Virus record (IMG/VR): IMGVR_UViG_3300045974_000100
Location: 1-64,000 of that record
Length of the DNA stretch: 64,000 nt
Reading direction: 5' to 3' (one strand)
DNA from: a virus
The translations under genes were made by a program, and so were the position numbers. Below, piece after piece: positions 28,332 to 51,347 of this stretch. Under the pieces are notes generated by a model. That model had not been told where the DNA came from. It saw only the letters and a list, made by a program, of their open reading frames with translations, and made no database searches. Positions within the stretch are counted from its first letter, which is position 1. Each line of letters starts with the position of its first letter.

Positions 28332-28623
28332 GATCATGCTTGCGACAGCAGCAGCGCTAGCAGCGCCCGTGGGTGGTGTGACGACAACCATCATCTTGAA
28401 ACGCAAGGCACCGGCTGAGAAGGACATTCAGTCACTTGAGGGTACGAAGTTGTCCTTCGACATCATGGTGGACACCCTCAAGCAGGCGAAGTCGCGCATT
28501 ACGGCCCTTGAAGAGCAGTGCGCGAGACAGCAGATTGAACTGGACAACACGCGGTCGCAGTTGCGTGCGGCCCGGAATGACCTGGAAGACCTGCAACGCA
28601 AGATCGAGGGAAGCCTCGGTTGA
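28318..28623 (+). CDS. TM + coiled-coil protein (lysis accessory)
   Basis: N-terminal hydrophobic segment, then heptads. Confidence 0.7.
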   Translation: MTGLEIMLATAAALAAPVGGVTTTIILKRKAPAEKDIQSLEGTKLSFDIMVDTLKQAKSRITALEEQCARQQIELDNTRSQLRAARNDLEDLQRKIEGSLG

Positions 28624-28659
28624 GCCGAGTACCGTGGAACCAACGTAGGGAGGCCCACT

Positions 28660-29784
28660 GTGGGTGACTTCGGTAGCGACGCTCTTGTGGGTAAGTCGAT
28701 GAAGACTGCCTACAAGACGGGCAGGGCATCCCGCGAACTGGTGGACACCCTTGAACGGTGGTCGCCGTCTAGGACTGGTTTCGGGTTGGACAAGCCAGGT
28801 CCGATGCCGCGTCGTGAGAAGGTCGCGTACCGGGTGGGCTACAAGCAGCCTGAGATGGAGAACGCGAAGCATAAGGCTGAACCGCTTGCTCTTCCTGCGG
28901 CCGCTGTAGGTGCTGGTGGTCTTCTCGTCGCCGCAGAGTATGACCGGGCGAAGAAGCGTCAACGTCGTGTGTCTAAGGGCGACTTGGGCGAGATGCGTGA
29001 GTGGTTGCCGAAGATCTACAGCCACGGCAAGACCATCCGTCGTGTGGATGCGGCGATGGACACGTCCAGGGGTGCTGAGAAGTTCATGGACGCTAAGAAG
29101 CAGCCCACGCTTCGCCGCAAGGCCAAGACTCACGCCGCCAACGCCGCTTACCGTCTTGGCTATCGTGAACCTGAGGTCAAGATCGGGGCTGCCGCAACTG
29201 CCTCTGGTGGCGCTATGGTCGGCGGTCTGACCGCTGTTAACCATGTGTGGCCCAAGGATGCCCACAAAGAGTCACTGGTGGGTAAAGCGTGGAATCAAAC
29301 GGACTACGGGATGCCTCCGTCGGCTCACCCGATCGGCGACCGGATCACTCCGAGCAATGCTGTCTTGGGTGGTGCTGCTGGGGCGGCGGCTGTGTCGGCG
29401 CGGTCTTTCAGCAATGCCCGCAACATGGACAACACGCTGATGGACCGGCACGAACTGAACCAACGGGGCCTGGACTCGGCGAAGTTGAAGCGTCAGGCTG
29501 CACAGAAGGACGTCGACTATGTGCATCGCGGCCGGTCAGTGACCAAGCCGTTGAAGCCGACGAAGTATCGGACGTTGCGAGCCGACCAGGGCATGTCTCG
29601 AGCGATGATCGACGAGGGTCGGGCAGCGGGTCGGGTGCGTCAGTCGTACACGGCACTGGGCCGGGCGGACAAGTTGGCCTCGCATGCGCGTGGTGCGGGC
29701 GCGTTAGGTGCAGTGGGCGCTGTCGGCCTCGGCTACCTGGGTATGAAGATGAAGTCTCGCCAAAATAGTCAGGTGCAGTACTGA
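28660..29784 (+). CDS. Basic Gly-zipper modular protein (putative head cargo polyprotein A)
   Basis: GGGAGG SD; modules delimited by LVGKS/VSKG/LVGKA; repeated AYR[VL]GY[KR]xPE followed by G/A hydrophobic helix. Confidence 0.75.
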   Translation: MGDFGSDALVGKSMKTAYKTGRASRELVDTLERWSPSRTGFGLDKPGPMPRREKVAYRVGYKQPEMENAKHKAEPLALPAAAVGAGGLLVAAEYDRAKKRQRRVSKGDLGEMREWLPKIYSHGKTIRRVDAAMDTSRGAEKFMDAKKQPTLRRKAKTHAANAAYRLGYREPEVKIGAAATASGGAMVGGLTAVNHVWPKDAHKESLVGKAWNQTDYGMPPSAHPIGDRITPSNAVLGGAAGAAAVSARSFSNARNMDNTLMDRHELNQRGLDSAKLKRQAAQKDVDYVHRGRSVTKPLKPTKYRTLRADQGMSRAMIDEGRAAGRVRQSYTALGRADKLASHARGAGALGAVGAVGLGYLGMKMKSRQNSQVQY

Positions 29785-31487
29785 TGACTGAAATGACCGG
29801 TGGTCGGGCTCTGGTCCTCAACAACCCTCCGCAAGGTTTGGGTGCTGGTGAGGAGCAGGCCCTCGATGAGGCGTTGAAAACGTCGCCTGACATCGAACTG
29901 GGTCTGTCCGGTCTGAAGCGGTACGGCGGCATCGTCGACGAAGAGTTCCTGCCGCAGTTGCGCGGGTCGCTCAAGGCGATTCAGATCTACCGGGAGATGT
30001 CGGACAACGACCCCATCATCGGGTCGGCTCTGTTCGCCATCAACAATCTGATCCGCAACGTGGACTGGCGTGTTGAGCCGTCCGGTAAGGACAAGGAGTC
30101 CGCGGACGCGGCGAAGTTCGTCGAAGAGTGCATGGAGGACATGGCCTCTCCGTGGGGTGACTTCATCATGGAGGTGCTGTCGTGCCTGCCGTATGGATTC
30201 GCGTGGCACGAGATCGTCTACAAGAAGCGTGACGGCCTGTACGCCAAGGATGGCGCGCACCGGAGCAAGTTCACTGACGGCAAGATCGGCTGGCGCAAGA
30301 TGCCGTTGCGCTCCCAGGACACCTGGCTGCGGTGGATCTTCGAGGACAACGGTGACGTGAAGGCGTTCGTCCAGTTGGCCCCTCCGACGTTCAAGACGAC
30401 GTACATCCCGATCGAGAAGTCGTTGCTGTTCCGCTACAAGACGTTCAAGGGCAACCCTGAAGGTGTCTCGATGCTGCGCCAGGCCTACCGGCCGTGGTTT
30501 ATGAAGAAGCGCATCGAAGAGTTCGAAGCCATCGGTGTGGAACGTGACTTGGCTGGTTTGCCTGTCATCAAGGTGCCGGCGAAGTACTTGAAGGCGAAGT
30601 CGGGCACGGACGAGTACAAGGCTGTGCAGGGTTTCACGAAGATGGCGAAGTCGTTGCGCCGTGGCGAGTCCGAGGGTGTTGTGTTCCCGTTGGAGTTCGA
30701 CCAGGACTCGAAGCAGCCCATGTTCTCGATCGAACTGTTGGGGTCTCCTGGTGGCCGCCAGTTCAACACGAACGAGATCATCCAACGCTATGAGGAGCGC
30801 ATCCTTCAGACGATGCTCGCTGACTGGCTTCTGGTGGGCCATGACGGCGGCACCGGCTCGTATTCGATGCACGTGGACAAGACCGGCATCTTCCGGACGG
30901 CGTTGAACTCGATCACGCAGATGATCGCTGATGTGCTCAACCGTCACGCCATTCCGCGGCTGTTCGAGTTGAACGGATGGCGCCCGGAGTCGTTGCCGAA
31001 GATCGTCCCGTCTGACGTTGACGCCCCTGACATCACCCAGTTGTCGCAGTTCATGTCCCAGATGGCCGGTATCGGCTTGAACTGGTTCCCGGACGCCGAT
31101 CTGGAGAACATGCTGCGCAAGGCGGCCCGTCTGCCGGTCCTGGACGAGGACGAGATGGAACGCCGGCGCATGTTGCAGCAGAAAGCGGAGTCGACGCAGT
31201 TCGCTCAGGCCAACCTCGAGTATGTGGACTCTCGTTTGCAGCTCGCGCAGGCCCTTGGTGCAGGTATGCCCTCGGATCAGGCCGCCCAAGCGGTGCAGTC
31301 GGGCCGTCAGCAGGACATGCAGCAGGAGCAGGGCCAGATCTCGGCTCAGCAGCAGGAGCAGTCGGCTCAGGCCGGTCATCAACGTCAACTGGAGTCCGCC
31401 GAGCATTCCTCGAAGTTGGCGATCTCGTCGGGGAAGGACAAGAAGCCGGCGGGTGGTGGGAAGAGTGGCGGGTCTTCCAAGACGTGA
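29784..31487 (+). CDS. Portal protein (DUF935 / Mu gp29-like)
   Basis: IYREMSDNDP, LPYGFAWHEIVYK, NPEGVSMLRQAYRPW, ERDLAGLPV, LNRHAIPRLFELN; Q-rich tail. Confidence 0.9.
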   Translation: MTEMTGGRALVLNNPPQGLGAGEEQALDEALKTSPDIELGLSGLKRYGGIVDEEFLPQLRGSLKAIQIYREMSDNDPIIGSALFAINNLIRNVDWRVEPSGKDKESADAAKFVEECMEDMASPWGDFIMEVLSCLPYGFAWHEIVYKKRDGLYAKDGAHRSKFTDGKIGWRKMPLRSQDTWLRWIFEDNGDVKAFVQLAPPTFKTTYIPIEKSLLFRYKTFKGNPEGVSMLRQAYRPWFMKKRIEEFEAIGVERDLAGLPVIKVPAKYLKAKSGTDEYKAVQGFTKMAKSLRRGESEGVVFPLEFDQDSKQPMFSIELLGSPGGRQFNTNEIIQRYEERILQTMLADWLLVGHDGGTGSYSMHVDKTGIFRTALNSITQMIADVLNRHAIPRLFELNGWRPESLPKIVPSDVDAPDITQLSQFMSQMAGIGLNWFPDADLENMLRKAARLPVLDEDEMERRRMLQQKAESTQFAQANLEYVDSRLQLAQALGAGMPSDQAAQAVQSGRQQDMQQEQGQISAQQQEQSAQAGHQRQLESAEHSSKLAISSGKDKKPAGGGKSGGSSKT

Positions 31488-31725
31488 CGTTCTTCGTTTC
31501 GCGCACGGCATGGTGTTGCAGCAGATCCAGCGCGAACAGGGCAATGTTGACGAACTGTTCCACCTGTACCTACAGGAAAGCGCGAAGTCGGGGTGGCCCG
31601 TGCAGGTGGCGGTCTTCAACATCGTCCGGGCGTTGAGTGCGGTGGGCGCGAAACTCGCCGAATCCGTGGACGATGAGGTTGTGAGCAGTCTGACTGTGAG
31701 CCTGATTGGGGATGACCGTGACTGA
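31465..31725 (+). CDS. Small hypothetical protein
   Basis: Fills the gap after the portal; start 31465 or 31510. Confidence 0.45.
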   Translation: MAGLPRRDVLRFAHGMVLQQIQREQGNVDELFHLYLQESAKSGWPVQVAVFNIVRALSAVGAKLAESVDDEVVSSLTVSLIGDDRD

Positions 31726-32980
31726 GCAGATGCCGGAACGGGCTTCACGCCGTAACGCTGCCACTCGTGCAGCTGCGGGTGGGGCCTTGTTTGGTTTGGG
31801 GTCAGCCACGCACTCTCTGGTTCGTTCTGATGTGGACCGTGTGTCGGGTTCGAAGGGTTGGGCGGGCGCCGGCAAGGATTCTGGCCATGTTCTGTCAGTC
31901 GGTCGGCGTAAGTTGGTCGATCACGGCCTTGCAGCCAAGCGAGCCAAGGAAGTGTTCCTGAACCCGGCTCACATCGGTGGGGGCATGTTGGGTCGGGCGG
32001 CCCAGATCACGGGCGCTGGCCTTGCTCTGATGGGCGCGAAGGGCATTGTGGCGCCGTCTGAGAAGAACGCCAGCAAGTTGTCGATGCATAACGAGATCGT
32101 CCGGCCGATGATCAACCACGCCACTCCCATTGACCCGGAGAAGATGGAAGCCCGGCTGCGTCGCCGTCAACCGGTGGCTAAGCGTCTTCCGGAGTCTGAG
32201 TGGAACGATCTGCAGCGCCGTCGTCGGCGGCAGCGGAAGATCGCGTTGACTTCTGGCACGTTGGGTGTGAGTGCTCTGGCGTTGCGTGGTCCGGACGCGG
32301 TGAAGTTCGCCGTCCGCCACAACCCAGAGAAGCTGAAGATGATCACTCCCGCGGTGAAGCACTCTCAGCACGCCTCAAACCTTCTGGGTACTGGTTCGAT
32401 CGGTATCGGCTCGATGGGTGCGTTCAACTCGGCGAAGATGGCCCACCTCGAGCACGAGCACGACAACGAGTTGCAGCGTCTGTCCAACATGGCTTCGTCG
32501 GCTGTCCGTAAGGACGCCTGGTTGGACAAGTACCGTGACCGGATCTCTCCGTCGGCTGAGCACGGATACAAGCATCTGAAGGGTGGTCGCAATGAAGCCC
32601 GAGGTACTGCCGTGGGAAGTGGCCTCTTGTCGGCAGGGTCGGGTGCGGCCGCGATCGGAGCGCTTCGTCGTGGAAACAAGGTCGACGGCGCCATGCTCTC
32701 CGCTGCGGCTCTGTCTTCCGGCATTGCCACGTATCAGCAGGGCAAGAAGGCTCATACCTGGAACAAGAAGTTGGGCAAGATCAAGGCCAAGGGTGAAGAA
32801 CGTGCCGCTCAAGGTATCTACGGCAAGGACCGTGAGGTAGCGAAGGCGTTCGGACTGATTCGACCCCCGAAGCCACCGAAGTTGGGGCCGTCGTCGATCC
32901 GTCGTGCCACCCTTAGACGGGGTGCTTCGGGGGCTATGGTCAACGTGAAGGCTGCGCCTGTGTCTGGAGGACTCCGGTGA
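31718..32980 (+). CDS. Basic Gly-zipper modular protein (putative cargo polyprotein B)
   Basis: PVAKR, AVRKD, EVAKA boundaries; six G/A/S-rich hydrophobic segments; R/K-rich; start approximate. Confidence 0.75.
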   Translation: MTEQMPERASRRNAATRAAAGGALFGLGSATHSLVRSDVDRVSGSKGWAGAGKDSGHVLSVGRRKLVDHGLAAKRAKEVFLNPAHIGGGMLGRAAQITGAGLALMGAKGIVAPSEKNASKLSMHNEIVRPMINHATPIDPEKMEARLRRRQPVAKRLPESEWNDLQRRRRRQRKIALTSGTLGVSALALRGPDAVKFAVRHNPEKLKMITPAVKHSQHASNLLGTGSIGIGSMGAFNSAKMAHLEHEHDNELQRLSNMASSAVRKDAWLDKYRDRISPSAEHGYKHLKGGRNEARGTAVGSGLLSAGSGAAAIGALRRGNKVDGAMLSAAALSSGIATYQQGKKAHTWNKKLGKIKAKGEERAAQGIYGKDREVAKAFGLIRPPKPPKLGPSSIRRATLRRGASGAMVNVKAAPVSGGLR

Positions 32981-35900
32981 CGACAAACGCACGACTCCTT
33001 GAGGTCATCCGTAAGCACGGACGCCAGGACCCGGATGCGGGCTGCCAACTCATCGACCAGGCGCTCATCTCGTACATGGATGACCTGGAGAAGTCGATGG
33101 GTCAGGATTTGGCTGACCTGCGCCTGGCTGCGGCCGGTGAGGCCATTTCCATCGGTAAGCGTGCGCTGGGCCGCGAATATGTGGAGTCGATCGCGAAGGG
33201 TGTGTACCCGGACGACGTTGACATGCTGCAACGCGCCCAGTGGATCGCTGACATTGAGCAGGCGCTGCTTGTGGCGAAGGCCGGTAACCCGTTCGGGCCT
33301 GGTTCTGGCACATCTACGGGTTCTGATGATGTGGAGAACTGGCAGGACGGCTCTCACCGTCGCGTCGTTCGTAACCGGTTCGGCCGGTTCGCCCGGTCCA
33401 TCAGCGACAAGGGCGCCAACCCGTGGTTCGGCCCGCATGCTCGCCGTTCCCCTCGGATCTTGACTGACGCCACCATCGGTGAGGGCAAAGAGGCCAAGTA
33501 CAAGGATTCGCTGTCACCTGAGGACAAGGCGCAAGCCTCGGTTCACCAGGGCCAGTGGAACCACGTCAACGATCTGATGCAGGAGTTCCTCGACTCGTTC
33601 GGGACGAACAAGGGTGTCAACGCGATCGTCACTTTGCGCGGCGAGGACGGCCGGGACAAGTATTGGGAACTCCCGATGGAGGGTGTGGAGCGCGGCAAGC
33701 AACTGCCGAAGCACTACGACTGGCCGTTGGGCGACAAGGCTGTCCAGATCGAGTTCGTTCCATCTGCGGACGCCAACGAGAACGAGATGAAGCGCCTGAA
33801 CGCGTTCGAGAACATGAACCTCATGGGTATGCCTGGCTATGCCCGTATGGCCTCGGTGGACCCGAAGCAGTGGTCGAAGTTGGCGGACACGTTCACGGAC
33901 AAGAACAAGGCCAACCAGTGGGACGAGAACGGCCGTTTGGGCCAGTTCATGGGCCGTACTGCGGCGATCACAGACGTGTTGCAGGCGTCGGGGTTCAACA
34001 ACAAGTACACGGGCCTCGCAGGACTTGTAGGGTCGCTCGGCCCAGATGCCGCGAAGGTGCTGGACCCGTACGTGCGCCAGGCCGCCTACCGTTACCGCGG
34101 CACTGAGACCACGCCGTCTTCGCAGTTGCGTAGCGAATTGGCCACTCCTGCGGCTCACACCATGGACGAGAACGAGGTGTTGGCTGAGCAGGCCCGCGCC
34201 ACTGAGTCTGTAAGGACTGCGCGTCCGGGCGGTTTGCACCCTGTTGATGGTGCGATCGCGTTGGCGTCGAAGAACCGTGAGGAGATGACTCCGGACCAGT
34301 TCAACATGCGTGTCCGAGCCAACCTTGCGGGTGGTTTCCTGGCTGGGAAGTTGCCGAAGGACCTGGCGACCGCTGAACTGTCACGCCGTTCGGGCCACAT
34401 CCTGCCCAGTCAGGGCGTGTTGCTCGACGACAAGGGCAAGATCGTCTCCCAGTCGGTCGGATACGCCGATGACCACTACTTGCCGTTCGACCTCAAGAAC
34501 CTCTCCCGTCTGCGCGGGGGCCAATACGTCCGGACGCGTGTTCAGGGAGGGCTGACGGGAGAGGACATCTACACGGCGGTGCAGACAGGAGCCCGTAAGG
34601 CTTCAGTGGTCTCGTCGTCGGGCTATTTCTCGCTCGAGTTCGCCCCTGATTTCCGTGGCGGCCGCGCGAACAGCGACAAAGCACGCCAAATGTATGACCG
34701 GTACTTGAAGATCCTTCAGGCCGTCGACGAGTCGGGCATGTACGTCCGCGACATCGACCCGTTGAAGAGGGAGCAACTGCGGTCCCGCGCGATCGACATC
34801 GCGAACGGCGACAAGGACATGTTCAAGCGCGAGTTTGAGCGTCTCGTCGACGAGGAGCGCATGAGTTCGGGCCGGGTGGAGGAAGGCGACCTCGACACGT
34901 TGCACGAAGAGGTTGTGCGGGATCTGTCTGCGGGTGGGAAGCAGGCACGTCCGGCTGACATCGCTGACGAGTTTGAGCGTCGGGTGGAGGAGAAGCGCAA
35001 CCTGCAGGCGTCGGAGTTGAAGTTGAACGCTGAAGGGTATGCGTTGGCGTTGCACACGTTGCAGCAGCAGTACCCGTACTTCATTCGGGCGATCGAGTTC
35101 CACGACCTCAAGGGCGCCGGCGGTTTCCTCAACGCTTTGGGTGTGCCTGGGAACGTGCCGGCGAACCGTCACGCCAAGGACATGGGTCGGGTGCGTCGCG
35201 GGGATCTGCGTCCGGACCAGGTCGGGTTCAAGCCGAAGGAAAGCAGCGAGCAGGTCCGTGAATACAGCGCCCCAGCCGGTGCTGCGCCGAAGCCTGCCGC
35301 TATGGAGGGTGAAGACACCGCGGAGGAGGCCTCTAAGCCGACCGACGTGGTGAAGCCGAACGCTCCGAAGATGCCTACGGGCCGGTTCAGCCAGATCATC
35401 GACCAGTCTCGTCCTTCCCTGGACAACCAGAAGGGCCAGACGTTGGGTGCGTTCTTTGACGCCTGCGCGTTGGCCGGCACGAGCAAGTACGAGGAGCGTT
35501 TGGGGCTGGGATCGTCCAGTTTCGACTCTCAGACCACGAACTTGGCTCGCGTCACCTGGTTGATGGCTCATAACAAGGATGACTCGATGGCGGTCCTGAA
35601 TGGGCCGAACGGTGGGGAAGCGGTCGCTGCGTTGGGTGACGCGGAAGCGGTGAAGTCCGCATGGCAGGCCGCATTGGGCTTGTCAGCGAACCCGTCACTT
35701 CAGGGCTCGGATGAAGACCTCGAGACGACAATTCTGGGGTCCAACAAGCGCAGCGTCGTGTCCGACCGGATCGCTGAAATCGCTGCCCGTGCGTCCGATC
35801 TACTGTTCGTCACCTCTGGTCCTGGTCCGTTCACGCCTCCGCGTGGTGACGTGTTCGCTGCTGATGCGCGTGCCCAGTTGCCGTCGCAGGTTCAGTCGTT

Positions 35901-36480
35901 GACGAGTTACGAGCAACTGTTGGCATGGGCTGATAGTGACAAGAAGGGCGCGAACGAGGTTCAGTCACGCGCGAAGCAGTTGATGTCTACTGCGCACGGT
36001 CCGTCGTTGACGGGTGCTTCTCGTGCGGCTCAGGAGCAGTTGAACTTGCTCAAGGCAATCAAGACTGCTCGTCGTGAATGGTCGCGTCGTTCCGATAAAG
36101 AGCGCACAACGAACGCATTCCAGCAGGCCGTGGCCAATGCTTACGGCGCTGGGTTCAAGACGAACATGCTCAGCGGCTTTTTGACCGCGTACAAGCCGAA
36201 CGAACTCACTGATGATGTCCTGCGGACGGAAGCTGAAGACATTCAGTCCGGTTGGACGTTCCTCACCGCGCAGCGCACCTTGAACCTCATGGACGCCAGG
36301 TCGGCTGACTGGGTGGATCGCGTGCTGTCTGGAGGTGGTGGTGCGGGCCCAAAAGCGTGGCCGGCCCCGGATCACAGCCTGGCGGCGTATCAGGTGGGCA
36401 AGTCGTCCTCGCCCCGACGGGTCGTCATCTTGCCGAAGGATCATCCGGTCAGCAAAGCGGTCCAGGCCAGACACATGTAG
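32977..36480 (+). CDS. Large head-associated protein (1167 aa)
   Basis: GGAGG SD; N-terminal SIGKR/SIAKG/LVAKA motifs then RNRFGRFA; lies between portal and protease. Confidence 0.8.
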   Translation: MTTNARLLEVIRKHGRQDPDAGCQLIDQALISYMDDLEKSMGQDLADLRLAAAGEAISIGKRALGREYVESIAKGVYPDDVDMLQRAQWIADIEQALLVAKAGNPFGPGSGTSTGSDDVENWQDGSHRRVVRNRFGRFARSISDKGANPWFGPHARRSPRILTDATIGEGKEAKYKDSLSPEDKAQASVHQGQWNHVNDLMQEFLDSFGTNKGVNAIVTLRGEDGRDKYWELPMEGVERGKQLPKHYDWPLGDKAVQIEFVPSADANENEMKRLNAFENMNLMGMPGYARMASVDPKQWSKLADTFTDKNKANQWDENGRLGQFMGRTAAITDVLQASGFNNKYTGLAGLVGSLGPDAAKVLDPYVRQAAYRYRGTETTPSSQLRSELATPAAHTMDENEVLAEQARATESVRTARPGGLHPVDGAIALASKNREEMTPDQFNMRVRANLAGGFLAGKLPKDLATAELSRRSGHILPSQGVLLDDKGKIVSQSVGYADDHYLPFDLKNLSRLRGGQYVRTRVQGGLTGEDIYTAVQTGARKASVVSSSGYFSLEFAPDFRGGRANSDKARQMYDRYLKILQAVDESGMYVRDIDPLKREQLRSRAIDIANGDKDMFKREFERLVDEERMSSGRVEEGDLDTLHEEVVRDLSAGGKQARPADIADEFERRVEEKRNLQASELKLNAEGYALALHTLQQQYPYFIRAIEFHDLKGAGGFLNALGVPGNVPANRHAKDMGRVRRGDLRPDQVGFKPKESSEQVREYSAPAGAAPKPAAMEGEDTAEEASKPTDVVKPNAPKMPTGRFSQIIDQSRPSLDNQKGQTLGAFFDACALAGTSKYEERLGLGSSSFDSQTTNLARVTWLMAHNKDDSMAVLNGPNGGEAVAALGDAEAVKSAWQAALGLSANPSLQGSDEDLETTILGSNKRSVVSDRIAEIAARASDLLFVTSGPGPFTPPRGDVFAADARAQLPSQVQSLTSYEQLLAWADSDKKGANEVQSRAKQLMSTAHGPSLTGASRAAQEQLNLLKAIKTARREWSRRSDKERTTNAFQQAVANAYGAGFKTNMLSGFLTAYKPNELTDDVLRTEAEDIQSGWTFLTAQRTLNLMDARSADWVDRVLSGGGGAGPKAWPAPDHSLAAYQVGKSSSPRRVVILPKDHPVSKAVQARHM

Positions 36481-37325
36481 ATGCCAACAAGGTCGTCGAA
36501 CTGCGCAACCGGCTCGACAACCTCACTGGCATGGCAGGTGTGAAGAACCAGGTCCAGTCGATCATCGACACGACCGTCGACGACTATCAGCGCATCGAGG
36601 CTGGTAAGCCGCCGAAGGACTCCACACACCACATGGTCATCACTGGCCCGCCTGGTGTGGGTAAGACGATGGTCACGTCCGAGATTCTGGCTCCGCTGTT
36701 CTACAACCTTGGTGTCACTGACCGTCCGTCTGCGGCTGACCCGTTCCGTGCCTCTGACTTGGTGTCCGAGTACGTGGAGGGCACCCGTAAGAAGGTCCGT
36801 GACTGGTGGGAGAAGAACCGTGGGGGAGTGCTTTTCCTCGACGAGGCGTATGTGTTGGCGCCGTCGAAGTCGAAGTACGGCCCTGAGGCGATCGACGAAA
36901 TGATGCAGCTCATGGACAAGGACCGCCGTGATGGGGTCCACACTGTCCTGGTGATGGCTGGTTACCCGCATGAGATGAAGGAGTTCCTGGACACGGTCAA
37001 CCCAGGGTTCAAGTCGCGTATCCCGCACCGCATCAACATGCCTGCGTATTCTGCGGAGGACCAGCACAAGATCTTGCAGGGCATGATGGAGCGCCAGCAG
37101 GACGTGGTGACCCCGGAAACGAGCCGTGTGATCGGTGACGCGGTGGGTCGTCTGTCCACACATCCGAACAACGCGAATGGCCGCACAATGTCGAACTTCC
37201 ACCAGCAGATGTCACGGGCGCGTGCGACTCGTCGGGCTGTGAACCCGGCGTCGAGCGCCATTGACGAGTTCTTGCCGGCCGATGTGAAGCGTGCGGAAGC
37301 GGAAGAAAGCCGGTCTATGTCGTGA
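36348..37325 (+). CDS. CbbX/SpoVK/EccA-like AAA+ ATPase domain (likely -1 frameshift extension of 32977)
   Basis: HMVITGPPGVGKT, SDLVSEYVEGT, GGVLFLDEAY, VMAGY..EM..FL..NPGFKSRI. Confidence 0.88.
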   Translation, partial: PKSVAGPGSQPGGVSGGQVVLAPTGRHLAEGSSGQQSGPGQTHVDANKVVELRNRLDNLTGMAGVKNQVQSIIDTTVDDYQRIEAGKPPKDSTHHMVITGPPGVGKTMVTSEILAPLFYNLGVTDRPSAADPFRASDLVSEYVEGTRKKVRDWWEKNRGGVLFLDEAYVLAPSKSKYGPEAIDEMMQLMDKDRRDGVHTVLVMAGYPHEMKEFLDTVNPGFKSRIPHRINMPAYSAEDQHKILQGMMERQQDVVTPETSRVIGDAVGRLSTHPNNANGRTMSNFHQQMSRARATRRAVNPASSAIDEFLPADVKRAEAEESRSMS

Positions 37326-40027
37326 GGTGGTGGGATGACCCGTCAACAGCGCGCACCGTCCTTGGTGTCGTGGACGATTCTGACGTCGGCCAAGGGGTGG
37401 GTACGGCCGTTCTCGGCTATCACGCTCTCGCTATGGGTGCTCTCAAACCTTTGGCTGCGGCTACTCTCGTCGACTCGGGCCAGGTTCGTAACGCTCTCGC
37501 CCATGTGGATCTAGAGCCGGTCAAAGAGGCCATGGCGATGGCACTGTCGCATGCTGTGGATGATCCGGAGTTGATCGCTGAACGGTTCGTCAACGGCATG
37601 CACGAGTCGTCGTCTGCTCTCACGACGCGCCTGGTCGACGTGTGGACGAACTCGAAGATGGCATGGCCGCAGGCAATCGAACGCGCCGCTGAGGTTCACG
37701 GTGTCCCTCCGGAGTTCCTGGGCACTTACCCGGTGGACGCGAAGTTGCCGATGTTCCCGGAGTCTGTGCGCCGTGACAAGGCTGACCGTGTCCTCATGTC
37801 GTTCGCCGGCAGCTTGTCGAGCATTCCGGACGTGCCGGCTGTCTTGGCGAAGTCCTACCAGTTCGAAGAGGACCATCCGCGGGGTGAAGGTGGGAAGTTC
37901 CGCACTAAGGAGGAGCAGGAGAGGGACGCCCGTAAGGCCAAGCGGATCAAACGCATGAACCGGATGAACGCGGTCACAGCGCAGGCTCAGCAGAAGCGCA
38001 CCACGCAACGGGTGAAGGTGGAACGCGCCGAACAGGAGCAAGCCAACCAGGCCGAGCAGATGCGCCAGTTGATGGCGTTGCAGCCGACCCGTGCAGCGTT
38101 GCAAGAGGAACTGGGCATGGTGCCGCTCAAGCGCCAGTCCGGTCTGCAGGGGCGCCAATCTCAGCCGAAGGTGCAAGGTAAGGGCCAGGACGGCCCGTCA
38201 CCGTACCCGGAGATCAGCGACGCCCTACTCAAGCGGTACCCCGGTGACTATCCCTCTGCGGCGATCGCTTCGGACAAGGTGTTCTTCCTCATTCCGAATG
38301 CTGTGTCGTCGATCATCGACAATGAGTTCAACGGCACACCGCTGTCGTGGTGGAACTTGGCTGAAGCGGCCGGTGCTGCCCCTCATGCGGTGCGGAAGTT
38401 CAACCCGATGTCGGAAAACGAGTTCAACACGTTCGTCCGGAACAAGCTGCTGAACAGCACCGAGTACCAGGCTGCAGTGAACAAACTCATCTCTGTGGGT
38501 AGTTCGGGTGAGACGGGCCGTATTGGGAGCGCGGAGTACCAGGCGGCGTTGGACAACGTCTCGAGGGCCGCCCAGGTCGTCATCGACAACGCTCCGGAGT
38601 TCCGTGAGTACACGGTGGGGTGGACGCCTGGTGACGAGTTCCTCATCCATGACGCGAACATGTCATCACCGGTGCCTGAGAAGTGGCTGCCGGCGGAGGG
38701 CGCCAAGTACACACCTCTTCCCACGGTGACTTCTGGCAGTGGTGTGAAGGCTGAGGTGTTCGTCGATCTCCCTGGGTTGAAGGGAACGCCGCACAAGCAA
38801 CGCCTCCAGGTGCATTTCCCGGCTACTCAGGAGTTCGGCGCTGGCCAAATGTACGGCGGTGGCATCACCAGTGGGCCTCACGTAGCGGTGGAGTTCGGCA
38901 AGTCTGGTGAGTGGGAGGAACAGGAGCATCCTCGTGGGGATCGTGGCCTATTCACGGACAAGCCAGTGAGCCGCAGAGACGTCCGGGCGCGTCGGTTTAT
39001 GGCGATCCAGCAGCAAACCAAGCAACGTCGGTCTCGTGATGTGCGTCAGGAAACTGTTCGCGCGCAGCAAGAGGCCCCAGCCGTCGCAGCGGAGCGCTCG
39101 AAGCTTGTGGATCTGTTCGGTGCACGGGAACAGCCCCTTGAGCGTCGTCAGTCCGGCCTTCAGGGCCGTCAACGTCGTGAGTCGCTGAGTGGGTTGCAGG
39201 CTCCGTTGCCTCGTCCGAAGGCCACTCCGCATGTGTTGGACGGCATGTTGGGCTTCTATACGCCTGATTTCCTCCCCGACATCGCGTTCATTGACCCGAA
39301 AGGCGCCAAACCAGGTGACATCTGGGACAACGAGGCAGGCTTTGATGCCAACGAACCGGATGCGATCAACCCACACATGGAGCCGGTCGCGAACTTCAGC
39401 GACATCGGGGTGGATACCGGCAGTGGGGCATCAAAGTCGATCATCATCAAGGTCGACAAGGGGTCGTGGTTCTCCAACACAGTCCTGTCGAACGCTCACC
39501 GGGACCAGGCGCAGACACCTGAGCAGGCCAACACGTCAGGGAACGCCGCCTACAAGAAGATCTTGGACTACATCCAGAACCGTCACGAGATGTTGTCGGC
39601 TGTGTTCGATGACCAGGAAGTCGCGCAGGGTGAAGCCGACCGGATGAACTTGTTCGACACGAAGGCCGGCCGTGACTCTTACGAATGGGTCGACGAGGAC
39701 GGCACTGACGTCGGGTCTGAGCACTACCAGGTGATCCCGGCGCCGGTCGGTGGCAAGGAACGGTTCCGCATCGTCCCCGCTTACGCCGATGACCGTGAGG
39801 GCTCTGTTGTCCGCAACTCGCTGAACTTGCTCACTGGCACTCCGCAGGCGTGGAAAGAGTTCGCCCGGACGGGTCAGGCCCGCATCGAACGCGTCAACAC
39901 GTCCCACAACACCTATGACTGGGATGCGAACGATCTGATGTACGGCGGGGACAAGATCCTTTCGACTGAAGTGAACACCGATGTGGCGTTGTTCCGCATC
40001 AGCCCTGTTACCGGTGAACGGCGTTGA
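37322..40027 (+). CDS. Large head-associated protein with two HPRG..G.F modules
   Basis: LAKSYQFEEDHPRGEGGKFRTK and FGKSGEWEEQEHPRGDRGLFTDK; duplicated RQSGLQGRQ. Confidence 0.8.
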   Translation: MRWWDDPSTARTVLGVVDDSDVGQGVGTAVLGYHALAMGALKPLAAATLVDSGQVRNALAHVDLEPVKEAMAMALSHAVDDPELIAERFVNGMHESSSALTTRLVDVWTNSKMAWPQAIERAAEVHGVPPEFLGTYPVDAKLPMFPESVRRDKADRVLMSFAGSLSSIPDVPAVLAKSYQFEEDHPRGEGGKFRTKEEQERDARKAKRIKRMNRMNAVTAQAQQKRTTQRVKVERAEQEQANQAEQMRQLMALQPTRAALQEELGMVPLKRQSGLQGRQSQPKVQGKGQDGPSPYPEISDALLKRYPGDYPSAAIASDKVFFLIPNAVSSIIDNEFNGTPLSWWNLAEAAGAAPHAVRKFNPMSENEFNTFVRNKLLNSTEYQAAVNKLISVGSSGETGRIGSAEYQAALDNVSRAAQVVIDNAPEFREYTVGWTPGDEFLIHDANMSSPVPEKWLPAEGAKYTPLPTVTSGSGVKAEVFVDLPGLKGTPHKQRLQVHFPATQEFGAGQMYGGGITSGPHVAVEFGKSGEWEEQEHPRGDRGLFTDKPVSRRDVRARRFMAIQQQTKQRRSRDVRQETVRAQQEAPAVAAERSKLVDLFGAREQPLERRQSGLQGRQRRESLSGLQAPLPRPKATPHVLDGMLGFYTPDFLPDIAFIDPKGAKPGDIWDNEAGFDANEPDAINPHMEPVANFSDIGVDTGSGASKSIIIKVDKGSWFSNTVLSNAHRDQAQTPEQANTSGNAAYKKILDYIQNRHEMLSAVFDDQEVAQGEADRMNLFDTKAGRDSYEWVDEDGTDVGSEHYQVIPAPVGGKERFRIVPAYADDREGSVVRNSLNLLTGTPQAWKEFARTGQARIERVNTSHNTYDWDANDLMYGGDKILSTEVNTDVALFRISPVTGERR

Positions 40028-40060
40028 AATGCGCCATGATGAAGCGATTAGGAGGTTGTC

Positions 40061-40828
40061 GTGGCTGACTCAATGACGGTCGTCAAGTCCCTAAACGAGA
40101 TTGACCCCGGTTTCCAGCGCCTGTGCAAGACGATGTTCGGCGACGGGGTCGACACGGAGCGTCTGTGGACGTACCTCTACGGGGTCGACGGCATCACCAA
40201 GATGGCTCCTCCGGACGCGCATGTGCTTTCTTCCGGCGCGAAGCAGGGCGGTAAGCGCATCTTGGCCGCGGTGAAGTCCCGTCCCGGCATTGCGCTGGAG
40301 TCGTCGTCTGCTGCTGTGCTCGCTGACCGGTCCATTGCTCGGCGTAAGCGCAAGCCACAGCCCAAGATGTACTCGCCGTTCGACTACGACACGCCGACGT
40401 TCGTCGCTAAGGGTGTCATCACTGGCACTGACCCGGTCCGCCAGCAGGTTTTTGGCTGGGCGTCGATCTCTGAGCACAACGGTGTCCTGATTGAGGACCG
40501 CCAGGGCGACATCATCATGGAGCCGGAACTGGAGAAGGCGGCCTACAAGTACGTGGTCGACTCGCGTGTGGGTGGCGACGAGCATCGCCGTGTCCCGGTG
40601 CAGAAGTTCGATGACGGCATGATTCCCCTTCACGCCTCTGACTTGATCGAGTCGATGGTGTTCACGAAGGAGAAGATCGCCAAGCTGCATCTTCCGGAGT
40701 CCACTCCGATCGGCTGGTGGGTGGGGTTCCAGGTCAACGACAACCAGGTGTGGGACGACGTCGTCACCGGTAAGCGCACCGGTTTCAGCATCCATGGCAA
40801 GGGTCGCCGTATCCCGGTCGAGGCCTGA
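40061..40828 (+). CDS. Prohead maturation serine protease, XkdF-like
   Basis: QVFGWAS, DRQGD...ELEKAAYKY, GDEH, LIES, PIGWWVGF...VW..V..G..TGFSIHG. Confidence 0.85.
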   Translation: MADSMTVVKSLNEIDPGFQRLCKTMFGDGVDTERLWTYLYGVDGITKMAPPDAHVLSSGAKQGGKRILAAVKSRPGIALESSSAAVLADRSIARRKRKPQPKMYSPFDYDTPTFVAKGVITGTDPVRQQVFGWASISEHNGVLIEDRQGDIIMEPELEKAAYKYVVDSRVGGDEHRRVPVQKFDDGMIPLHASDLIESMVFTKEKIAKLHLPESTPIGWWVGFQVNDNQVWDDVVTGKRTGFSIHGKGRRIPVEA

Positions 40829-40829
40829 C

Positions 40830-41054
40830 GTGGAGTTCGGGTGGGCCTTGGAGGTCCTCAAAGAGGGTGGTCGTGTTGCCCGTGTGGGGTGGAACGGCCC
40901 GAATCAGTGGATCGCCATGCAGCACCCGGACGAGCATTCGAAGATGACGTTGCGCTACATCTACATCCACACGGTTCAGGGTGACCTTGTTCCGTGGCTG
41001 GCTAGTCAGACTGATTTGATCGCTGAGGACTGGGTGGAGGTGCCTGATGAGTGA
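40830..41054 (+). CDS. DUF2829 / Tad2-like anti-defence protein
   Basis: FGWALEVLKEGGRVARVGWNG...VPWLASQTDLIAEDW. Confidence 0.85.
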   Translation: MEFGWALEVLKEGGRVARVGWNGPNQWIAMQHPDEHSKMTLRYIYIHTVQGDLVPWLASQTDLIAEDWVEVPDE

Positions 41055-41352
41055 ACGCCCCCAGGTGTCTGCACTGATCGGTAAGGCCTCCCGTTTCGTT
41101 CCGGCTGACGCCCAACCGTTGGGTCCGCTCGACTTCGGGCATCCCATCCCTCAGATCGGCCACCGTCCCATTGATCCTGTGTTGATGTCGTCTGCGGCTC
41201 GGATGATGGTCGACGCGGAGGCTGCAGCGTTTGGAAGACGCGTAAGCCGTAAGCGCCGTCGTGAACTGCAGGGCGCCTACACCGACTTCGCTGGTGGACG
41301 CCAGTGGCTATACGCCCCGTTGAACTCCGCGATCTCAGGGAACAACCGATGA
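41047..41352 (+). CDS. Small basic head-region protein
   Basis: GGAGG SD; LIGKA motif near the N-terminus. Confidence 0.65.
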   Translation: MSERPQVSALIGKASRFVPADAQPLGPLDFGHPIPQIGHRPIDPVLMSSAARMMVDAEAAAFGRRVSRKRRRELQGAYTDFAGGRQWLYAPLNSAISGNNR

Positions 41353-43655
41353 GCAGCCCAGTCCGGCAGTACAAGCAGCCCTCGAAGGCTGAGACCGCTG
41401 TCGGCATTGGTCTGAACACTGTCGCGTTGGCTGGTGGTGTGTCGGGGTTGTCCCAGGCCACGGACCATTTCCGTCGTCGCGTGTTCAACATCCCGATCGA
41501 TGCCCGCTCCACTGAGGAGAAGGCCGCTGCACGCCTGGCGAAGGTGCCGTCGAAGCCGTTGAAGGCCGCTGTAAGACCGATTTTGGAGCATCCTCGTGGT
41601 GCTGCGATTGGTCTTGCTGGTGGTGCGATGGGGTTGCATGCCACTGAATTGGTGGGAGATGTGTTGGCGCGGCGGTCGTTCCGTCGTCAGCAGCAGGCCA
41701 ACAAGGACAGTGTGGGTAAGGCGTTGACGCCGTTTGCCTCGGTGGCGCCGAAGGACAAGCACATCTTCCCGACGAAGCCGAAGAAGGTGGGTGTGCAGGG
41801 CGCTGGTCTTGCCTCCAAGCCCACGTCGGTGGCGTCGAATCCTCAGAGTCAGAACGGTCAAGTGTTGAAGGGGTTTGTGATGAGCGACTTGGGTAACGAG
41901 ACCCCGTTCGGCTCCCGTTCGTTGGCTGCCGAGGACGTCTCCAAGGGCATGTTGGGTGTCGCACTTGCGGGTGCGAAGTCGTTGCGTGGCGGTGCGAACA
42001 TCATCGGCCGGCAGCTGCGGTCTGAGGGTGGCGCCAAGACGGTGGGCAACCAGTTGGCCCAGGGTTTCCGCGGCCGTACGGCAGGAATGTCGCGTAACGC
42101 GGAGATGGGCGAGAAGTTGGGTCAGCGGGTGCAGGGTGTGAATCCTCGTTCGCCGTTCCCGACGCATGCTGGTCCGACGTCTCCGATGCGTTCTCCGATC
42201 ATGCCGGCGTTCCGGATCGGCTACCGCGCTCCTGAGATCGCTGGGGCTGCAGGTCTTGGTTTGGGTGCTGGTGCGTTGGGTGAGGCACACGGCCGTCATG
42301 TGTCTAAAGCTGCCATGGGACCTCGTACCGCTGCTCGAGCGCAGGAACTGGCTGGCAAACTCGCTGGCCGTCGCGCTTTCACGCCGAAGGAAAAGACTGT
42401 TCTCGCGGGCAAACAGCATCGCGCTCAGGGACTGGTTGAGCGTTCCCATGAAACGGCTGAGCAGTCCGCTGACTGGCGCAAGTTCGGCGGGGAACAGGAC
42501 CGTGAGGACCGCGGGTTCAACAAGGCTCGCAACTTCGTTGAGCGGTTCGACTGGGATCAGAAGACTGGGGCGCGTCGCAAGGCCATTCCGGGCTACAAGA
42601 CTTCGCCTCCTCGTCAGCGCGCACTGACTGGCGACAACAAGACTTACCTGGGCATGCCGAATAACCCTGGTACGGGTACCCGCCAGGGTTTGGGCGCTGG
42701 TCGTGGTGGCGAAACGGTCGACTACGAGTACACGGGCAATCGTCGCGTGCGGAAGTCCACTGACCGTGACCGTCGCGCTGGCAAGGGCTTCCAACAGTTG
42801 GGTGCCGCTGAATTGGCCGCTGCCCCGGTTGCTGGTGGCGCTGGTGCTGTCGGTTTGCACTCCATGAAGCGCAACATCGGTCAGCAGAAGCACTGGGAAG
42901 AGGCTTCCACTCACATGAACGGTGAGGCGAAGATCAACGCCCTGGTGAACTCGTCCAAGCATGAACTCAAGGCCTACAAGATGGCCCAGTTGGGTGGTCG
43001 TGGGACAGCGATCGGTGCTGGTTTGGCTGCGTTCGGCGCCACTGACCTGGCGATCGGCCACCACTTGAAGAACCGCGGCCGCAAGCCTGTCGCCAAGGGT
43101 ATGAAGCCCATCCGCAACGTGGGAGCGCCATTCCTTCGCCGTTATGCCGGACGCAACAACCCGGTGAAGGTCACGGAGATCATGGCGCGTTCCAAGGGCA
43201 ACCTGGCTCTTCGCGCGCATGACGCCACTCACGGCCTCAATCCGTCTGGTGACGCGCTTCAGCGGTCCAACCCGTTCCTTCCTGGCGCTACGCATCAGCG
43301 AGGGAAGTTGGTCATGGACATGAACGGAGCCGCCGGTCGTAACGCTGACCGTGCTGTGTCCAAGGCTGAACGCCGTTTCGACGCCGAGTCTGACCGTCAA
43401 CGCCGCGTCGGTATCTCCGCTGGCGCTGGTGTCGCAGGTGGCGCAGGTCTGGGTTACGCAGCCCACCACCACTTGAAGGGTTCCGGCGCCATCAACTACG
43501 ACAAGGGCCGGCTGTTGCTCAACGGTCGTAAAGCTGCCGGTACGCATCGTGGCCGCATCGGTTTGGGCCTCGCAGCCGGTTCAGCGATCGCCAGTTCTGC
43601 CGGTATCGGTGCCTACTCGTATGGCACGTCTGAGCGGAACCGCCGATGGAACTGA
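41349..43655 (+). CDS. Basic Gly-zipper modular protein (putative cargo polyprotein C)
   Basis: ATGA start; SVGKA, DVSKG, HVSKA, PVAKG, AVSKA boundaries; ~7 Gly-rich hydrophobic helices. Confidence 0.78.
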   Translation: MSSPVRQYKQPSKAETAVGIGLNTVALAGGVSGLSQATDHFRRRVFNIPIDARSTEEKAAARLAKVPSKPLKAAVRPILEHPRGAAIGLAGGAMGLHATELVGDVLARRSFRRQQQANKDSVGKALTPFASVAPKDKHIFPTKPKKVGVQGAGLASKPTSVASNPQSQNGQVLKGFVMSDLGNETPFGSRSLAAEDVSKGMLGVALAGAKSLRGGANIIGRQLRSEGGAKTVGNQLAQGFRGRTAGMSRNAEMGEKLGQRVQGVNPRSPFPTHAGPTSPMRSPIMPAFRIGYRAPEIAGAAGLGLGAGALGEAHGRHVSKAAMGPRTAARAQELAGKLAGRRAFTPKEKTVLAGKQHRAQGLVERSHETAEQSADWRKFGGEQDREDRGFNKARNFVERFDWDQKTGARRKAIPGYKTSPPRQRALTGDNKTYLGMPNNPGTGTRQGLGAGRGGETVDYEYTGNRRVRKSTDRDRRAGKGFQQLGAAELAAAPVAGGAGAVGLHSMKRNIGQQKHWEEASTHMNGEAKINALVNSSKHELKAYKMAQLGGRGTAIGAGLAAFGATDLAIGHHLKNRGRKPVAKGMKPIRNVGAPFLRRYAGRNNPVKVTEIMARSKGNLALRAHDATHGLNPSGDALQRSNPFLPGATHQRGKLVMDMNGAAGRNADRAVSKAERRFDAESDRQRRVGISAGAGVAGGAGLGYAAHHHLKGSGAINYDKGRLLLNGRKAAGTHRGRIGLGLAAGSAIASSAGIGAYSYGTSERNRRWN

Positions 43656-44155
43656 GGCTTGCTTCTACGGGCGTGGCCAAGGGTCTTCCTGTGGCGCTGC
43701 GTAGCGTCAGCGAGAGCACTCTGTACGGTGAACAACGTCGCCTGGCGCATCGCAGTGGTCGGGTGGCTGCTCGCGGTGTGGCGTTGGCGCGTGAGAACTA
43801 CCGCAAGTCCCCTGACATGGCGGCGCTGCTGCATCAGGCAAGTAAGAAGGCGGGACAAGCTGGTGTCCAGGCGCGGCGAGATGCGCGGTCTCTGGTCGGC
43901 AAGGCTGATGTCCCTGACGAGCCGGAACGTCGGCCGTTCTCAATACCTAACCCGAAGAAGAAGCCGAACGGTTCTGTGGCATCGATTGAGCAGGCTGTGA
44001 AGCGCTCGGGTAAAGGACGCCGTGTGGCGTTAATCGCGATTCCCGTTGGGGTTGGTGCTGCCGGTGCTGGCGCCTTTGGTTTACATGCTGCGACACGCAG
44101 TCGAACCAAAGTTGCTAGTGGGGCGCGTAACTCCTCAAGTTCGGTCAGGATGTGA
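43646..44155 (+). CDS. Basic Gly-zipper protein (putative cargo D)
   Basis: GVAKG, LVGKA; C-terminal VALIAIPVGVGAAGAGAFGL. Confidence 0.7.
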   Translation: MELRLASTGVAKGLPVALRSVSESTLYGEQRRLAHRSGRVAARGVALARENYRKSPDMAALLHQASKKAGQAGVQARRDARSLVGKADVPDEPERRPFSIPNPKKKPNGSVASIEQAVKRSGKGRRVALIAIPVGVGAAGAGAFGLHAATRSRTKVASGARNSSSSVRM

Positions 44156-45276
44156 CTGTTATGAGTACACGGCAGCGTTACGCACTGGTCGACATGGATC
44201 TCGATGAGGTGTCCACGGTCGGCATCCCAGCTAACCAGTTGGGGATGATTGTCTTGGCCAAAAGTGCCGGCAGCGGCCAAGACCTGATTTCCGAGGAGGG
44301 TTCCATGCCGGGTCAAGAGTTGTATGACGCTGAAGGCAGGGTCGTTGACCCGGAGGCGCTGGAAGTTGGCGACTACGTGTATGACGGTCCAGATGATGAA
44401 GCCGAAGAGTTCCAGGTTGTTCCTGTGGACGAAGACGGTTACATCCTCGAAGACGAACTCGAGCTTGTCGGCAAGGCTGGCGAACTTGAGATGGGTGGAC
44501 GCGCTGCACGGTATGGCGCGAAGGCCTCGAAGGCTCGCCGTGCGTTGCAGGCTCAGGGTGATCGTGCCCGTGCCGGCGCTGGCCGCGCCAAGAACTACAT
44601 GGTCGAGCACCGCCCCACTGCAAGTCCTGGTGAGGCTGGCGAGAAGTGGCACACAGGTGGCCGTGAAGGTTACCGCCTGACTTCCGAGGGCAAGCGAGTC
44701 GCTGGCTATGCCGGTGCGGGCGCTGGTGCTCTCGGTGCTGCTGGTGGTGGCGGTTACGCTGCTGGCCGTCGTGGCCATGTGGGCAAGTCGTTCGCCCAGT
44801 CGATCCTCGACGATGTGTCCAAGGCCGTCACCACTGACGACCAGATCAGCATCGTTGCCAAGGCGCTGCAGCAGTCCGAGAACGAGCGCGAGTTGCTCAT
44901 TCGGAAGTCTGCGCAGCTCGAGGCTCGCCTGAACGAAGCCGAAGACGCTGCGACGTTGAACTGGGCGATCTCCAAGGCTGCCGAGTACAACTTGCCGATC
45001 GACGCCGACGAGTTCGGTCCGATCCTCAAGCGCCTGGTCGAGAACATGCCTGAGCGCGACATGTACGTGCTCGACGAACTGTTCAAGTCCATCGGTGCCA
45101 CATTCTTCGAGGAACTGGGTTACAACGGCGGTTCACCGGAGTCGTCTTACGACTACGTGGCCGCCGCCGCTCAGGAACTCGTCGCCAAGACAGGTGCTTC
45201 GGACGCGCAGGCCATCACGGCCATGTACAACGCGAACCCGGACGCCTACGACGCCTACCTCGCGGAAGGACGGTAA
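44152..45276 (+). CDS. Scaffolding protein with N-terminal protease-like segment
   Basis: Directly upstream of decoration protein and MCP; N-terminal DEVSTVGIPANQ; acidic region, coiled coil, C-terminal NPDAYDAY. Confidence 0.8.
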   Translation: MTVMSTRQRYALVDMDLDEVSTVGIPANQLGMIVLAKSAGSGQDLISEEGSMPGQELYDAEGRVVDPEALEVGDYVYDGPDDEAEEFQVVPVDEDGYILEDELELVGKAGELEMGGRAARYGAKASKARRALQAQGDRARAGAGRAKNYMVEHRPTASPGEAGEKWHTGGREGYRLTSEGKRVAGYAGAGAGALGAAGGGGYAAGRRGHVGKSFAQSILDDVSKAVTTDDQISIVAKALQQSENERELLIRKSAQLEARLNEAEDAATLNWAISKAAEYNLPIDADEFGPILKRLVENMPERDMYVLDELFKSIGATFFEELGYNGGSPESSYDYVAAAAQELVAKTGASDAQAITAMYNANPDAYDAYLAEGR

Positions 45277-45282
45277 CGGCTC

Positions 45283-45702: not shown

Positions 45703-45715
45703 GGGGTAGCTGAAC

Positions 45716-46699: not shown

Positions 46700-46708
46700 G
46701 GACTGACC

Positions 46709-50491: not shown

Positions 50492-50590
50492 TGTAGCGCC
50501 TTCGCCCCTGGTTCCTTCATTGGTTCCGGGGGCGTCGTGCTGTCTGGAGTAGTGTCTGGCCTGTAGAACCGCTCACTACAGGAGGAAGCA

Positions 50591-51338: not shown

Positions 51339-51347
51339 GAGGTTGGC

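Follow-up and report, generated by a model that had tools for sequence, protein, structure and literature searches.

A 64,000 nt stretch of phage DNA from IMG/VR (record IMGVR_UViG_3300045974_000100), hereafter the window, corresponds to the first 64 kb of a genome of 73,167 bp with a GC content of ~61%. It includes a large open reading frame (ORF 32977-36480) coding for a protein of 1167 amino acids (aa) and, immediately downstream in the -1 frame, a module coding for an AAA+ ATPase (36477-37322). We consider it very likely that the two are connected by a dnaX-type programmed -1 ribosomal frameshift, located at the heptamer C_CCA_AAA (36348-36354). Such a fusion was proposed in the initial annotation of this DNA, and it is strongly supported by the relation of the frames, the conservation of the heptamer, the lack of start codons and the signals flanking the site. 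The anatomy of the junction, the conservation of this anatomy and the absence of start codons in the relatives were all computed directly.

All junction features are on the plus strand. The codons GGC CCA AAA of ORF 32977-36480 set C_CCA_AAA in the X_XXY_YYZ phase, X being the third codon position. The heptamer is preceded at a distance of 10-11 nt by a Shine-Dalgarno (SD)-like stretch GGAGGTG (36331-36337), a candidate upstream stimulator, in which GGAGGT (36331-36336) ends 11 nt before the heptamer. The -1 frame is closed by a TGA (36306-36308) located 39 nt before the heptamer and is open from 36309 to 37325, so that the shifted reading is ...GAGPK-SVAGPGSQ... All these positions agree with those initially annotated. 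The -1 frame extension (36354-37325) contains 323 codons and a stop codon; it starts with a 41-aa linker, which is followed by the AAA+ module. The two predicted products are thus 1167 aa and 1126+323 = 1449 aa long, close to the 1167 and ~1450 aa expected earlier. The overlap at 36355-36480 appears to be dual-coding, with a conserved 41-aa tail of the large protein in the 0 frame and the linker in the -1 frame. Its first 45 nt (36355-36399) occupy the position of a downstream hairpin in the relatives.

In 9000 codons of 15 ORFs, 18 in-phase XXXYYYZ heptamers were found, a density at which the 57-codon overlap would contain ~0.1. Only the pair at 36345 and 36348 leads into a long open -1 frame (324 and 323 codons); for the other 16 heptamers it does not exceed 54 codons. 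The first member of this pair, G_GGC_CCA (36345-36351), abuts C_CCA_AAA, and GGGCCCAAAA can be read as three homotriplets in the -1 frame; G_GGC_CCA is not kept in the relatives. Both C_CCA_AAA and the SD-like stretch are made of codons which are rare in this phage: CCA accounts for 29 of 448 Pro codons (6.5%), AAA for 32 of 484 Lys codons (6.6%) and GGA for 39 of 852 Gly codons (4.6%). The CCA-AAA combination is used by just one of 26 Pro-Lys pairs.

With an alignment of the large protein family, 80 related loci were retrieved from IMG/VR. In 23 of them a homologue of the AAA module is located directly downstream; the module is conserved in all 23 and is always in the -1 frame, and the open part of this frame ahead of the 0-frame stop measures 109-529 nt. 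After the removal of four exact duplicates (L004, L005, L007, and L027) there were 19 distinct junctions, 20 with the window. CCCAAAA is present in phase at a conserved Pro-Lys in all 20 junctions, and CCCAAAAG is the sole invariant block in the 127 aligned nt, although the GC content of the contigs varies from 0.43 to 0.71. The -1 frame opens at most 12 nt before the heptamer in 14 of the 20 junctions. A lack of conservation of the heptamer had been named in the initial annotation as grounds for rejecting the frameshift, and the opposite was found.

The depth of this conservation can be judged from the large proteins, which group into 15 clusters when the identity threshold is 50%, into 16 when it is 70% and into 18 when it is 90%. 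Proteins from different clusters are less than 50% identical, a distance at which synonymous sites are saturated. Given the x-Pro-Lys sequence and the codon usage of each ORF, a locus would carry C_CCA_AAA by chance with a probability of 0.0003-0.05; multiplied naively over the 15 clusters, these chances give ~1e-36, a figure which, due to shared ancestry, is an upper illustration and not a probability.

The same comparison bears on the possibility that the break between the frames is a sequencing or assembly indel, or reflects transcriptional slippage at the A4 run, the true gene being one continuous ORF. The short homopolymers of CCCAAAA are of the kind prone to miscalls on some platforms. 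The same frame break, however, is found in 19 other distinct assemblies, and the 0-frame tail past the site is conserved at the protein level. The sequence is present in two pond-metagenome runs, both of DNA. It is identical throughout in the possible source run, and a contig from the second run, which comes from another sample and another study, covers 35800-36672 with no differences and no gaps. An identical junction in an independent metagenome contig therefore excludes an indel and contradicts the sequencing error considered in the initial annotation. A missing base after ATG 36481, which would hide an ordinary start codon, was considered separately and ruled out by this identical contig together with the conserved arrangement. 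As for slippage, it needs runs longer than four A's, and the run at the heptamer is shorter than those known to support it. Runs discussed for transcriptional slippage in part of PMC4066793 are 7-mers. Taken together, an artefact or slippage is extremely unlikely.

The 0-frame product also appears to be real. The Pro-Lys at the heptamer is conserved together with the 41-aa tail that follows it: an alignment of 18 C-termini keeps the motif GG..PK...(S)R.V.V(L)SK.HPLS..V..R..GLP, and G1121 and P1125 of the large protein are at least 90% conserved in the family alignment A1. Conservation of the tail argues that the unshifted product, and thus both products, are real. It also accounts for the codon statistics past the heptamer. 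Within 36355-36477, the 0 frame scores +9.7 with a third-position GC content (GC3) of 0.83, and the -1 frame scores -12.4 with a GC3 of 0.50. The -1 frame is strongly coding only past the TAG at 36478-36480 (+44, GC3 0.87), and this is also where homology to other ATPases starts. The -1 linker is overprinted on the tail. A linker does precede the AAA fold, as was initially annotated, but its description as a flexible G/S/Q linker has to be qualified, since this stretch is overprinted on a conserved 0-frame sequence.

Candidate stimulators are found on both sides of the heptamer. The folding of the 45 nt after the heptamer was compared with 200 control windows of the same ORF. These 45 nt are more stable than the control mean in 20 of 20 junctions (z from -1.2 to -4.5, mean -2.2) and belong to the best 5% of controls in 14. 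The hairpins start 5-9 nt past the heptamer; their sequences differ and do not align between the relatives. Upstream, pairing with a generic anti-SD string was evaluated for a 16-nt stretch whose end is 4 nt short of the heptamer, and in 19 of the 20 junctions it ranks among the best 10% of controls. In the window, the anti-SD duplex has an energy of -10.6 kcal/mol, which corresponds to a z of -2.9 when compared with 300 control windows. For SD-like stimulators, a range of 6-17 nt before the motif is given in part of PMC4066793. C_CCA_AAG is described as highly shift-prone in Escherichia coli in PMC5009743.

Several observations weigh against a frameshift. The downstream folding signal, proposed as a check in the initial annotation, is seen across the family as negative z in all 20 junctions but is weak in the window itself: the 45-nt fold has a z of -1.23 with 8.5% of controls as stable, and when the 96-nt fold of 36355-36450 is compared with dinucleotide shuffles, z is +1.6 and 191 of 200 shuffles are as stable. 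The SD-like stretch also encodes a conserved Gly-Gly, which could by itself explain its richness in G. The strong anti-SD match in 19 of 20 junctions agrees with the claimed role of this stretch as a shift stimulator, but this role is inseparable from conservation of the protein. Among the E. coli A-site motifs, A_AA.A ranks below A_AA.G in the part of PMC4066793 that treats them. The poor -1 codon statistics of the overlap are expected of overprinting and give no positive support. Natural in-frame fusions in homologues, also suggested as a check, were not encountered: an AAA domain is present in none of the 150 listed family representatives (maximal length 1247 aa), and none of 120 long AAA proteins resembles the large protein. 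Finally, GTG 36357 is in frame with the ATPase and is located three nt after the heptamer, while in loci L014 (position 10672) and L025 (position 10621) the large gene ends in a TGA that is overlapped by a GTG (GTGA), and the ATPase homology starts a few codons further on.

These start codons would suit the ATPase being a separate gene, initiated at GTG 36357 with a 124-nt overlap or at some other start elsewhere, the heptamer having no role in recoding. The GTGA of L014 and L025 is the usual arrangement of coupled genes and would itself produce the -1 relation, and a canonical start of some kind is located upstream of the AAA homology in 9 of the 20 junctions. The remaining 11 junctions, however, have no ATG, GTG or TTG in this frame before the AAA fold, and in 12 of the 20 there is no canonical start between the heptamer and the AAA homology. 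The window has just two canonical starts in the -1 frame, GTG 36357 and ATG 36531. GGAGG is located 21 nt from GTG 36357, too far by the spacing rule for an SD used in initiation, in agreement with the initial annotation. As to ATG 36531, alignments of the stretch starting at 36477 with the SpoVK, CbbX, and EccA profiles and with the CbbX structures begin at its residues 3-11; the AAA fold therefore begins upstream of this ATG, and a start there would truncate it. Furthermore, a separate gene would leave unexplained both the invariant CCCAAAAG, made of rare codons and kept in 15 lineages, and the fact that in 14 of the 20 junctions the -1 frame opens no more than 12 nt away from the heptamer. 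We therefore regard a purely separate gene as quite unlikely. L014 and L025 retain CCCAAAA in spite of their GTGA overlap, and because of this overlap a free ATPase could be produced there by translational coupling too. Judging by the start codons, some lineages (the window with its GTG 36357, L014, and L025) could make free ATPase as well. In most relatives, the proposed frameshift is the only route to the ATPase visible in the sequence.

Non-canonical initiation, or termination followed by reinitiation near the TAG at 36478-36480, would dispense with a canonical start, leaving the heptamer to serve e.g., as a translational pause. The codon statistics, which change from favouring the 0 frame to favouring the -1 frame exactly where the stop codon lies, would agree with this, as would the start of the AAA homology a few codons from the 0-frame stop in the window and several relatives. 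Yet there is no ATG, GTG or TTG in the AAA frame near the stop in the window, nor in 11 of the 20 junctions, and the AAA homology begins at different distances from the 0-frame stop among the loci. In addition, reinitiation would not need the -1 frame to be open, as it is in all 23 loci, for 109-529 nt before the stop. A motif in the linker, (L/V)(V/A)PTG, occurs twice in L024 and L029, the duplication having no counterpart in the 0 frame, and suggests that the linker is translated. Reinitiation is thus very unlikely.

Returning to the frameshift, the following course of events can be proposed. When ribosomes translating the 1167-aa gene arrive at C_CCA_AAA, CCA would be occupied by tRNA-Pro (P site) and AAA by tRNA-Lys (A site), and a fraction of the ribosomes would slip one base back to CCC_AAA. 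Pairing of the anti-SD with the GGAGGTG located 10-11 nt upstream would aid the slip, as would, in most relatives, the hairpin starting 5-9 nt downstream. Unshifted ribosomes would complete the conserved 41-aa tail and stop at the TAG (36478-36480), giving the 1167-aa product. Shifted ribosomes would read the 41-aa linker and then the complete AAA+ module, giving the 1449-aa product with identical residues 1-1126. We infer the slip itself and its efficiency, and the fusion is assumed to be the minority product. The shared 1126 N-terminal residues would carry the ATPase wherever the large protein goes. Since the gene sits between the portal and capsid genes, the procapsid is the probable destination. 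The ATPase would act there as a tethered unfoldase or remodeller, its ratio being fixed by the efficiency of the shift.

The product of the -1 ORF has intact Walker A (GPPGVGKT) and Walker B (LFLDEA) motifs and an AAA_lid_6 domain. It matches PF00004 (4.7e-12) and PF17866 (AAA_lid_6; 1.9e-3, below the gathering score of this family), and the NCBIfam profiles TIGR02881, TIGR02880, and TIGR03922 at 6e-45 to 4e-40. The best structure matches are CbbX (3zuh/3syl, 1e-34) and EccA1 (6e-25). The assignment to the CbbX/SpoVK/EccA type made initially is confirmed by these matches. The scores for the SpoVK, CbbX, and EccA equivalogs, 153, 140, and 138 bits, are below the respective cut-offs of 423, 459, and 467 bits. 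On sequence grounds, the ATPase is a clade relative of these proteins and none of the three named ones.

Tblastn of the ATPase against GenBank phages returned 11 records only, all with less than 40% identity, and in none of these 11 is the large protein located beside the ATPase. A search for related loci with the ATPase alone found no locus. Among the nearest relatives in isolated phages is a protein of Mycobacterium phage Adler (L001, 29902-31803 of the record), a 633-aa AAA family ATPase with an in-frame N-terminal extension and 33% identity. In PHROG 4339, the ATPase corresponds to positions 270-503 of a 552-position profile. Judging from these sequences, N-terminal partners may be common for this clade of ATPases in phages.

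Within the -1 linker, the motif LAPTG (36408-36422) overlaps the 0-frame motif SPRRV. The corresponding (L/V)(V/A)PTG is found in the linker of 12 of the 20 junctions, and the first of the two copies in L024 and L029 is the one that lacks an SSRRV-like 0-frame counterpart. This motif may be a candidate processing or docking site, e.g., for the prohead protease.

The 1167-aa protein has no match in Pfam (E<=0.01), PHROG or NCBIfam, and 539 representatives match its family at E<=1e-3 in a search of the full library. Residues 320-800 (33934-35376) form a highly conserved core with the motifs DHYLPFDLKNL and GGQYVRTR..GGLTGED. The AlphaFold model of this core is confident (predicted local distance difference test score 83). 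Foldseek found no PDB match for it at E<=1e-3, returning just weak rows resembling JAB/MPN and cytidine deaminase (E 0.25-1); the best Z in VIA-align was 5.0, a BFVD search returned solely uncharacterised or "minor capsid" proteins, and the ESM Atlas contained no usable match. Tblastn of the core against 50,697 GenBank phage records gave no match, nor did blastn of 35800-37400 against GenBank phages in distant mode.

The gene order around the junction is typed by the following plus-strand features. The large terminase gene (25867-27429) and a gene for a Mu-type portal (29784-31487; PF06074, 1.5e-34) are located upstream, with a 424-aa ORF between the portal gene and the 1167-aa ORF. ORFs of 901, 258, 796, and 381 aa follow in that order between the ATPase and the major capsid protein gene (45710-46699; phrog_1005, 1.7e-86). 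The 258-aa product has weak PHROG matches to prohead protease, and the 901-aa and 796-aa proteins match no family in Pfam, PHROG or NCBIfam searches. An ORF of tape measure size (1635 aa) is located at 51339-56243, so that ~15 kb separate the shift site from the tape measure gene downstream. We refer to the 1167-aa protein as a head-module protein solely because its gene is positioned between those for the portal and the major capsid protein. The "head protein" of the initial annotation is acceptable in this positional sense, but no Pfam, PHROG or fold match stands behind the label.

The block comprising the portal, 424-aa, 1167-aa, ATPase, 901-aa, and 258-aa genes and continuing to the 381-aa ORF is syntenic in the relatives (28000-47000 of the window, loci L002-L030). 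According to tblastn with the window proteins, 18 of the 19 distinct relatives have the portal, 17 the 424-aa, 18 the 901-aa, and 17 the 258-aa gene. The portals are ~57-65% identical and the large proteins ~29-44%. A search of the genome contigs yielded a single weak and irrelevant locus (L082) and no clue to a prophage or host.

Just upstream of the tape measure-sized ORF, there is a pair of chaperone-like ORFs (50567-51338) overlapping at 50853-50986. Relative to the first, the second lies in the +1 (or -2) frame. No XXXYYYZ heptamer was found in their overlap. If this pair follows the usual recoding of tail chaperones, then, judging by its sequence, it is not a canonical -1 heptamer shift.

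Beyond the loci with an ATPase, the other 57 family loci include five with an in-phase CCCAAAA close to the large gene's 3' end: L008, which is cut, L031 (9193), L032 (8803), L033 (9076), and L037 (9427). L038 has G_GGA_AAA instead (9064). In the complete loci, these heptamers are located 140-210 nt before the stop and lead into -1 ORFs of 62-300 codons, L037 having only 62; none of these ORFs codes for an ATPase. The -1 ORFs of L031, L032, L033, and L038 have no Pfam match and match neither each other nor any other locus. In L033, an ATG (9280) overlaps the stop codon, so independent starts are possible there. The remaining distant family members have other C-termini and no heptamer.

As the same heptamer leads into unrelated -1 ORFs in distant relatives, a swap of cargo at the shift site is suggested, and we hypothesise that this cargo is swappable. 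In a speculative and rather doubtful extension of this idea, the site would be a "socket" of ancient origin, open to reuse, in which a family of head-internal proteins receives one of two mutually exclusive C-termini, the conserved 41-aa tail or a motor. A tethered AAA+ ring formed by frameshifted copies would then be packaged together with unshifted copies and would engage their C-terminal tails, and these unshifted copies would be unfolded or threaded during head assembly or ejection into the host. CbbX, which engages the tail of the Rubisco large subunit, may serve as a model for an AAA+ ring engaging conserved tails in this way.

Few bacterial and phage -1 frameshifts outside tail chaperones, insertion sequences, and dnaX are backed by deep conservation, and the site described here combines a slippery heptamer with candidates for the other two classical signal parts. 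It would add a new recoding family, so far found only in uncultured phages. If the frameshift occurs as proposed, an AAA+ unfoldase would be delivered to head assembly, or dosed within it, by a covalent tie to a large head-module protein. In practical terms, gene callers will give the ATPase a wrong or missing start or overlook it entirely, while the invariant CCCAAAAG provides a simple search pattern.

No account of this frameshift or of a phage CCCAAAA site was found in the literature, where a related entry may be listed among the conserved-heptamer clusters (prophage ones included) in Tables S4-S8 of PMC4066793 or among the GeneTack clusters. Mechanistically, this would be -1 frameshifting of the classical kind; the novelty lies in which genes are paired, in an enzyme as the cargo, and in how deeply the arrangement is conserved among uncultured phages. 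Among the closest parallels are E. coli dnaX (tau/gamma) and IS3/IS911, where an X_XXA_AAN heptamer, read like ours by tRNA-Lys in the A site, is combined with an SD-like stretch ~10 nt upstream and a hairpin a few nt downstream, for both of which our family has candidates. The shift would give a longer fusion protein, as it does in IS3/IS911, whereas the shifted product of dnaX is shorter and its heptamer is A_AAA_AAG rather than C_CCA_AAA. The genes joined here, for a phage head-module protein and for an AAA+ ATPase, have no relation to those of either system.

The G/GT pair of phage lambda resembles our case in having a conserved -1 shift where a structural-module gene approaches its 3' end, which yields two proteins with a common N-terminal part. 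Frameshifting in tail assembly chaperones is described, in part of PMC5009743, as giving two products, presumably at a fixed ratio. In contrast to lambda, our site is located between the portal and capsid genes and not immediately upstream of the tape measure gene, the extension is an AAA+ enzyme rather than a tail-binding T domain, and this phage has a separate chaperone-like ORF pair (50567-51338).

Frameshifting in head modules has precedents as well. In T7, the 10A/10B proteins result from a -1 frameshift in the capsid gene. The T7 shift and that of the major head protein of Lactobacillus phage A2 (cited in the reference list of PMC10885494) likewise extend a head component at its C-terminus, but there a short or decorative extension is added to the major capsid protein, while here a 282-aa ATPase would be added to 1126 aa of a non-capsid protein. 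A head-module protein with a variable C-terminal effector is also known from the MuF family of phage polymorphic toxins, as described in PMC5576092. The cargo of MuF proteins is fused in frame, unlike the cargo considered here, which would be attached by recoding, and no MuF domain was found in the 1167-aa protein with Pfam (E<=0.01) and PHROG. Finally, the Rubisco activase CbbX, SpoVK, and EccA are the best matches to the ATPase itself (1e-34 to 6e-45), sharing Walker A/B and AAA_lid_6 with it. The phage enzyme differs from them in its viral context and in its N-terminal partner, which would be supplied by frameshifting.

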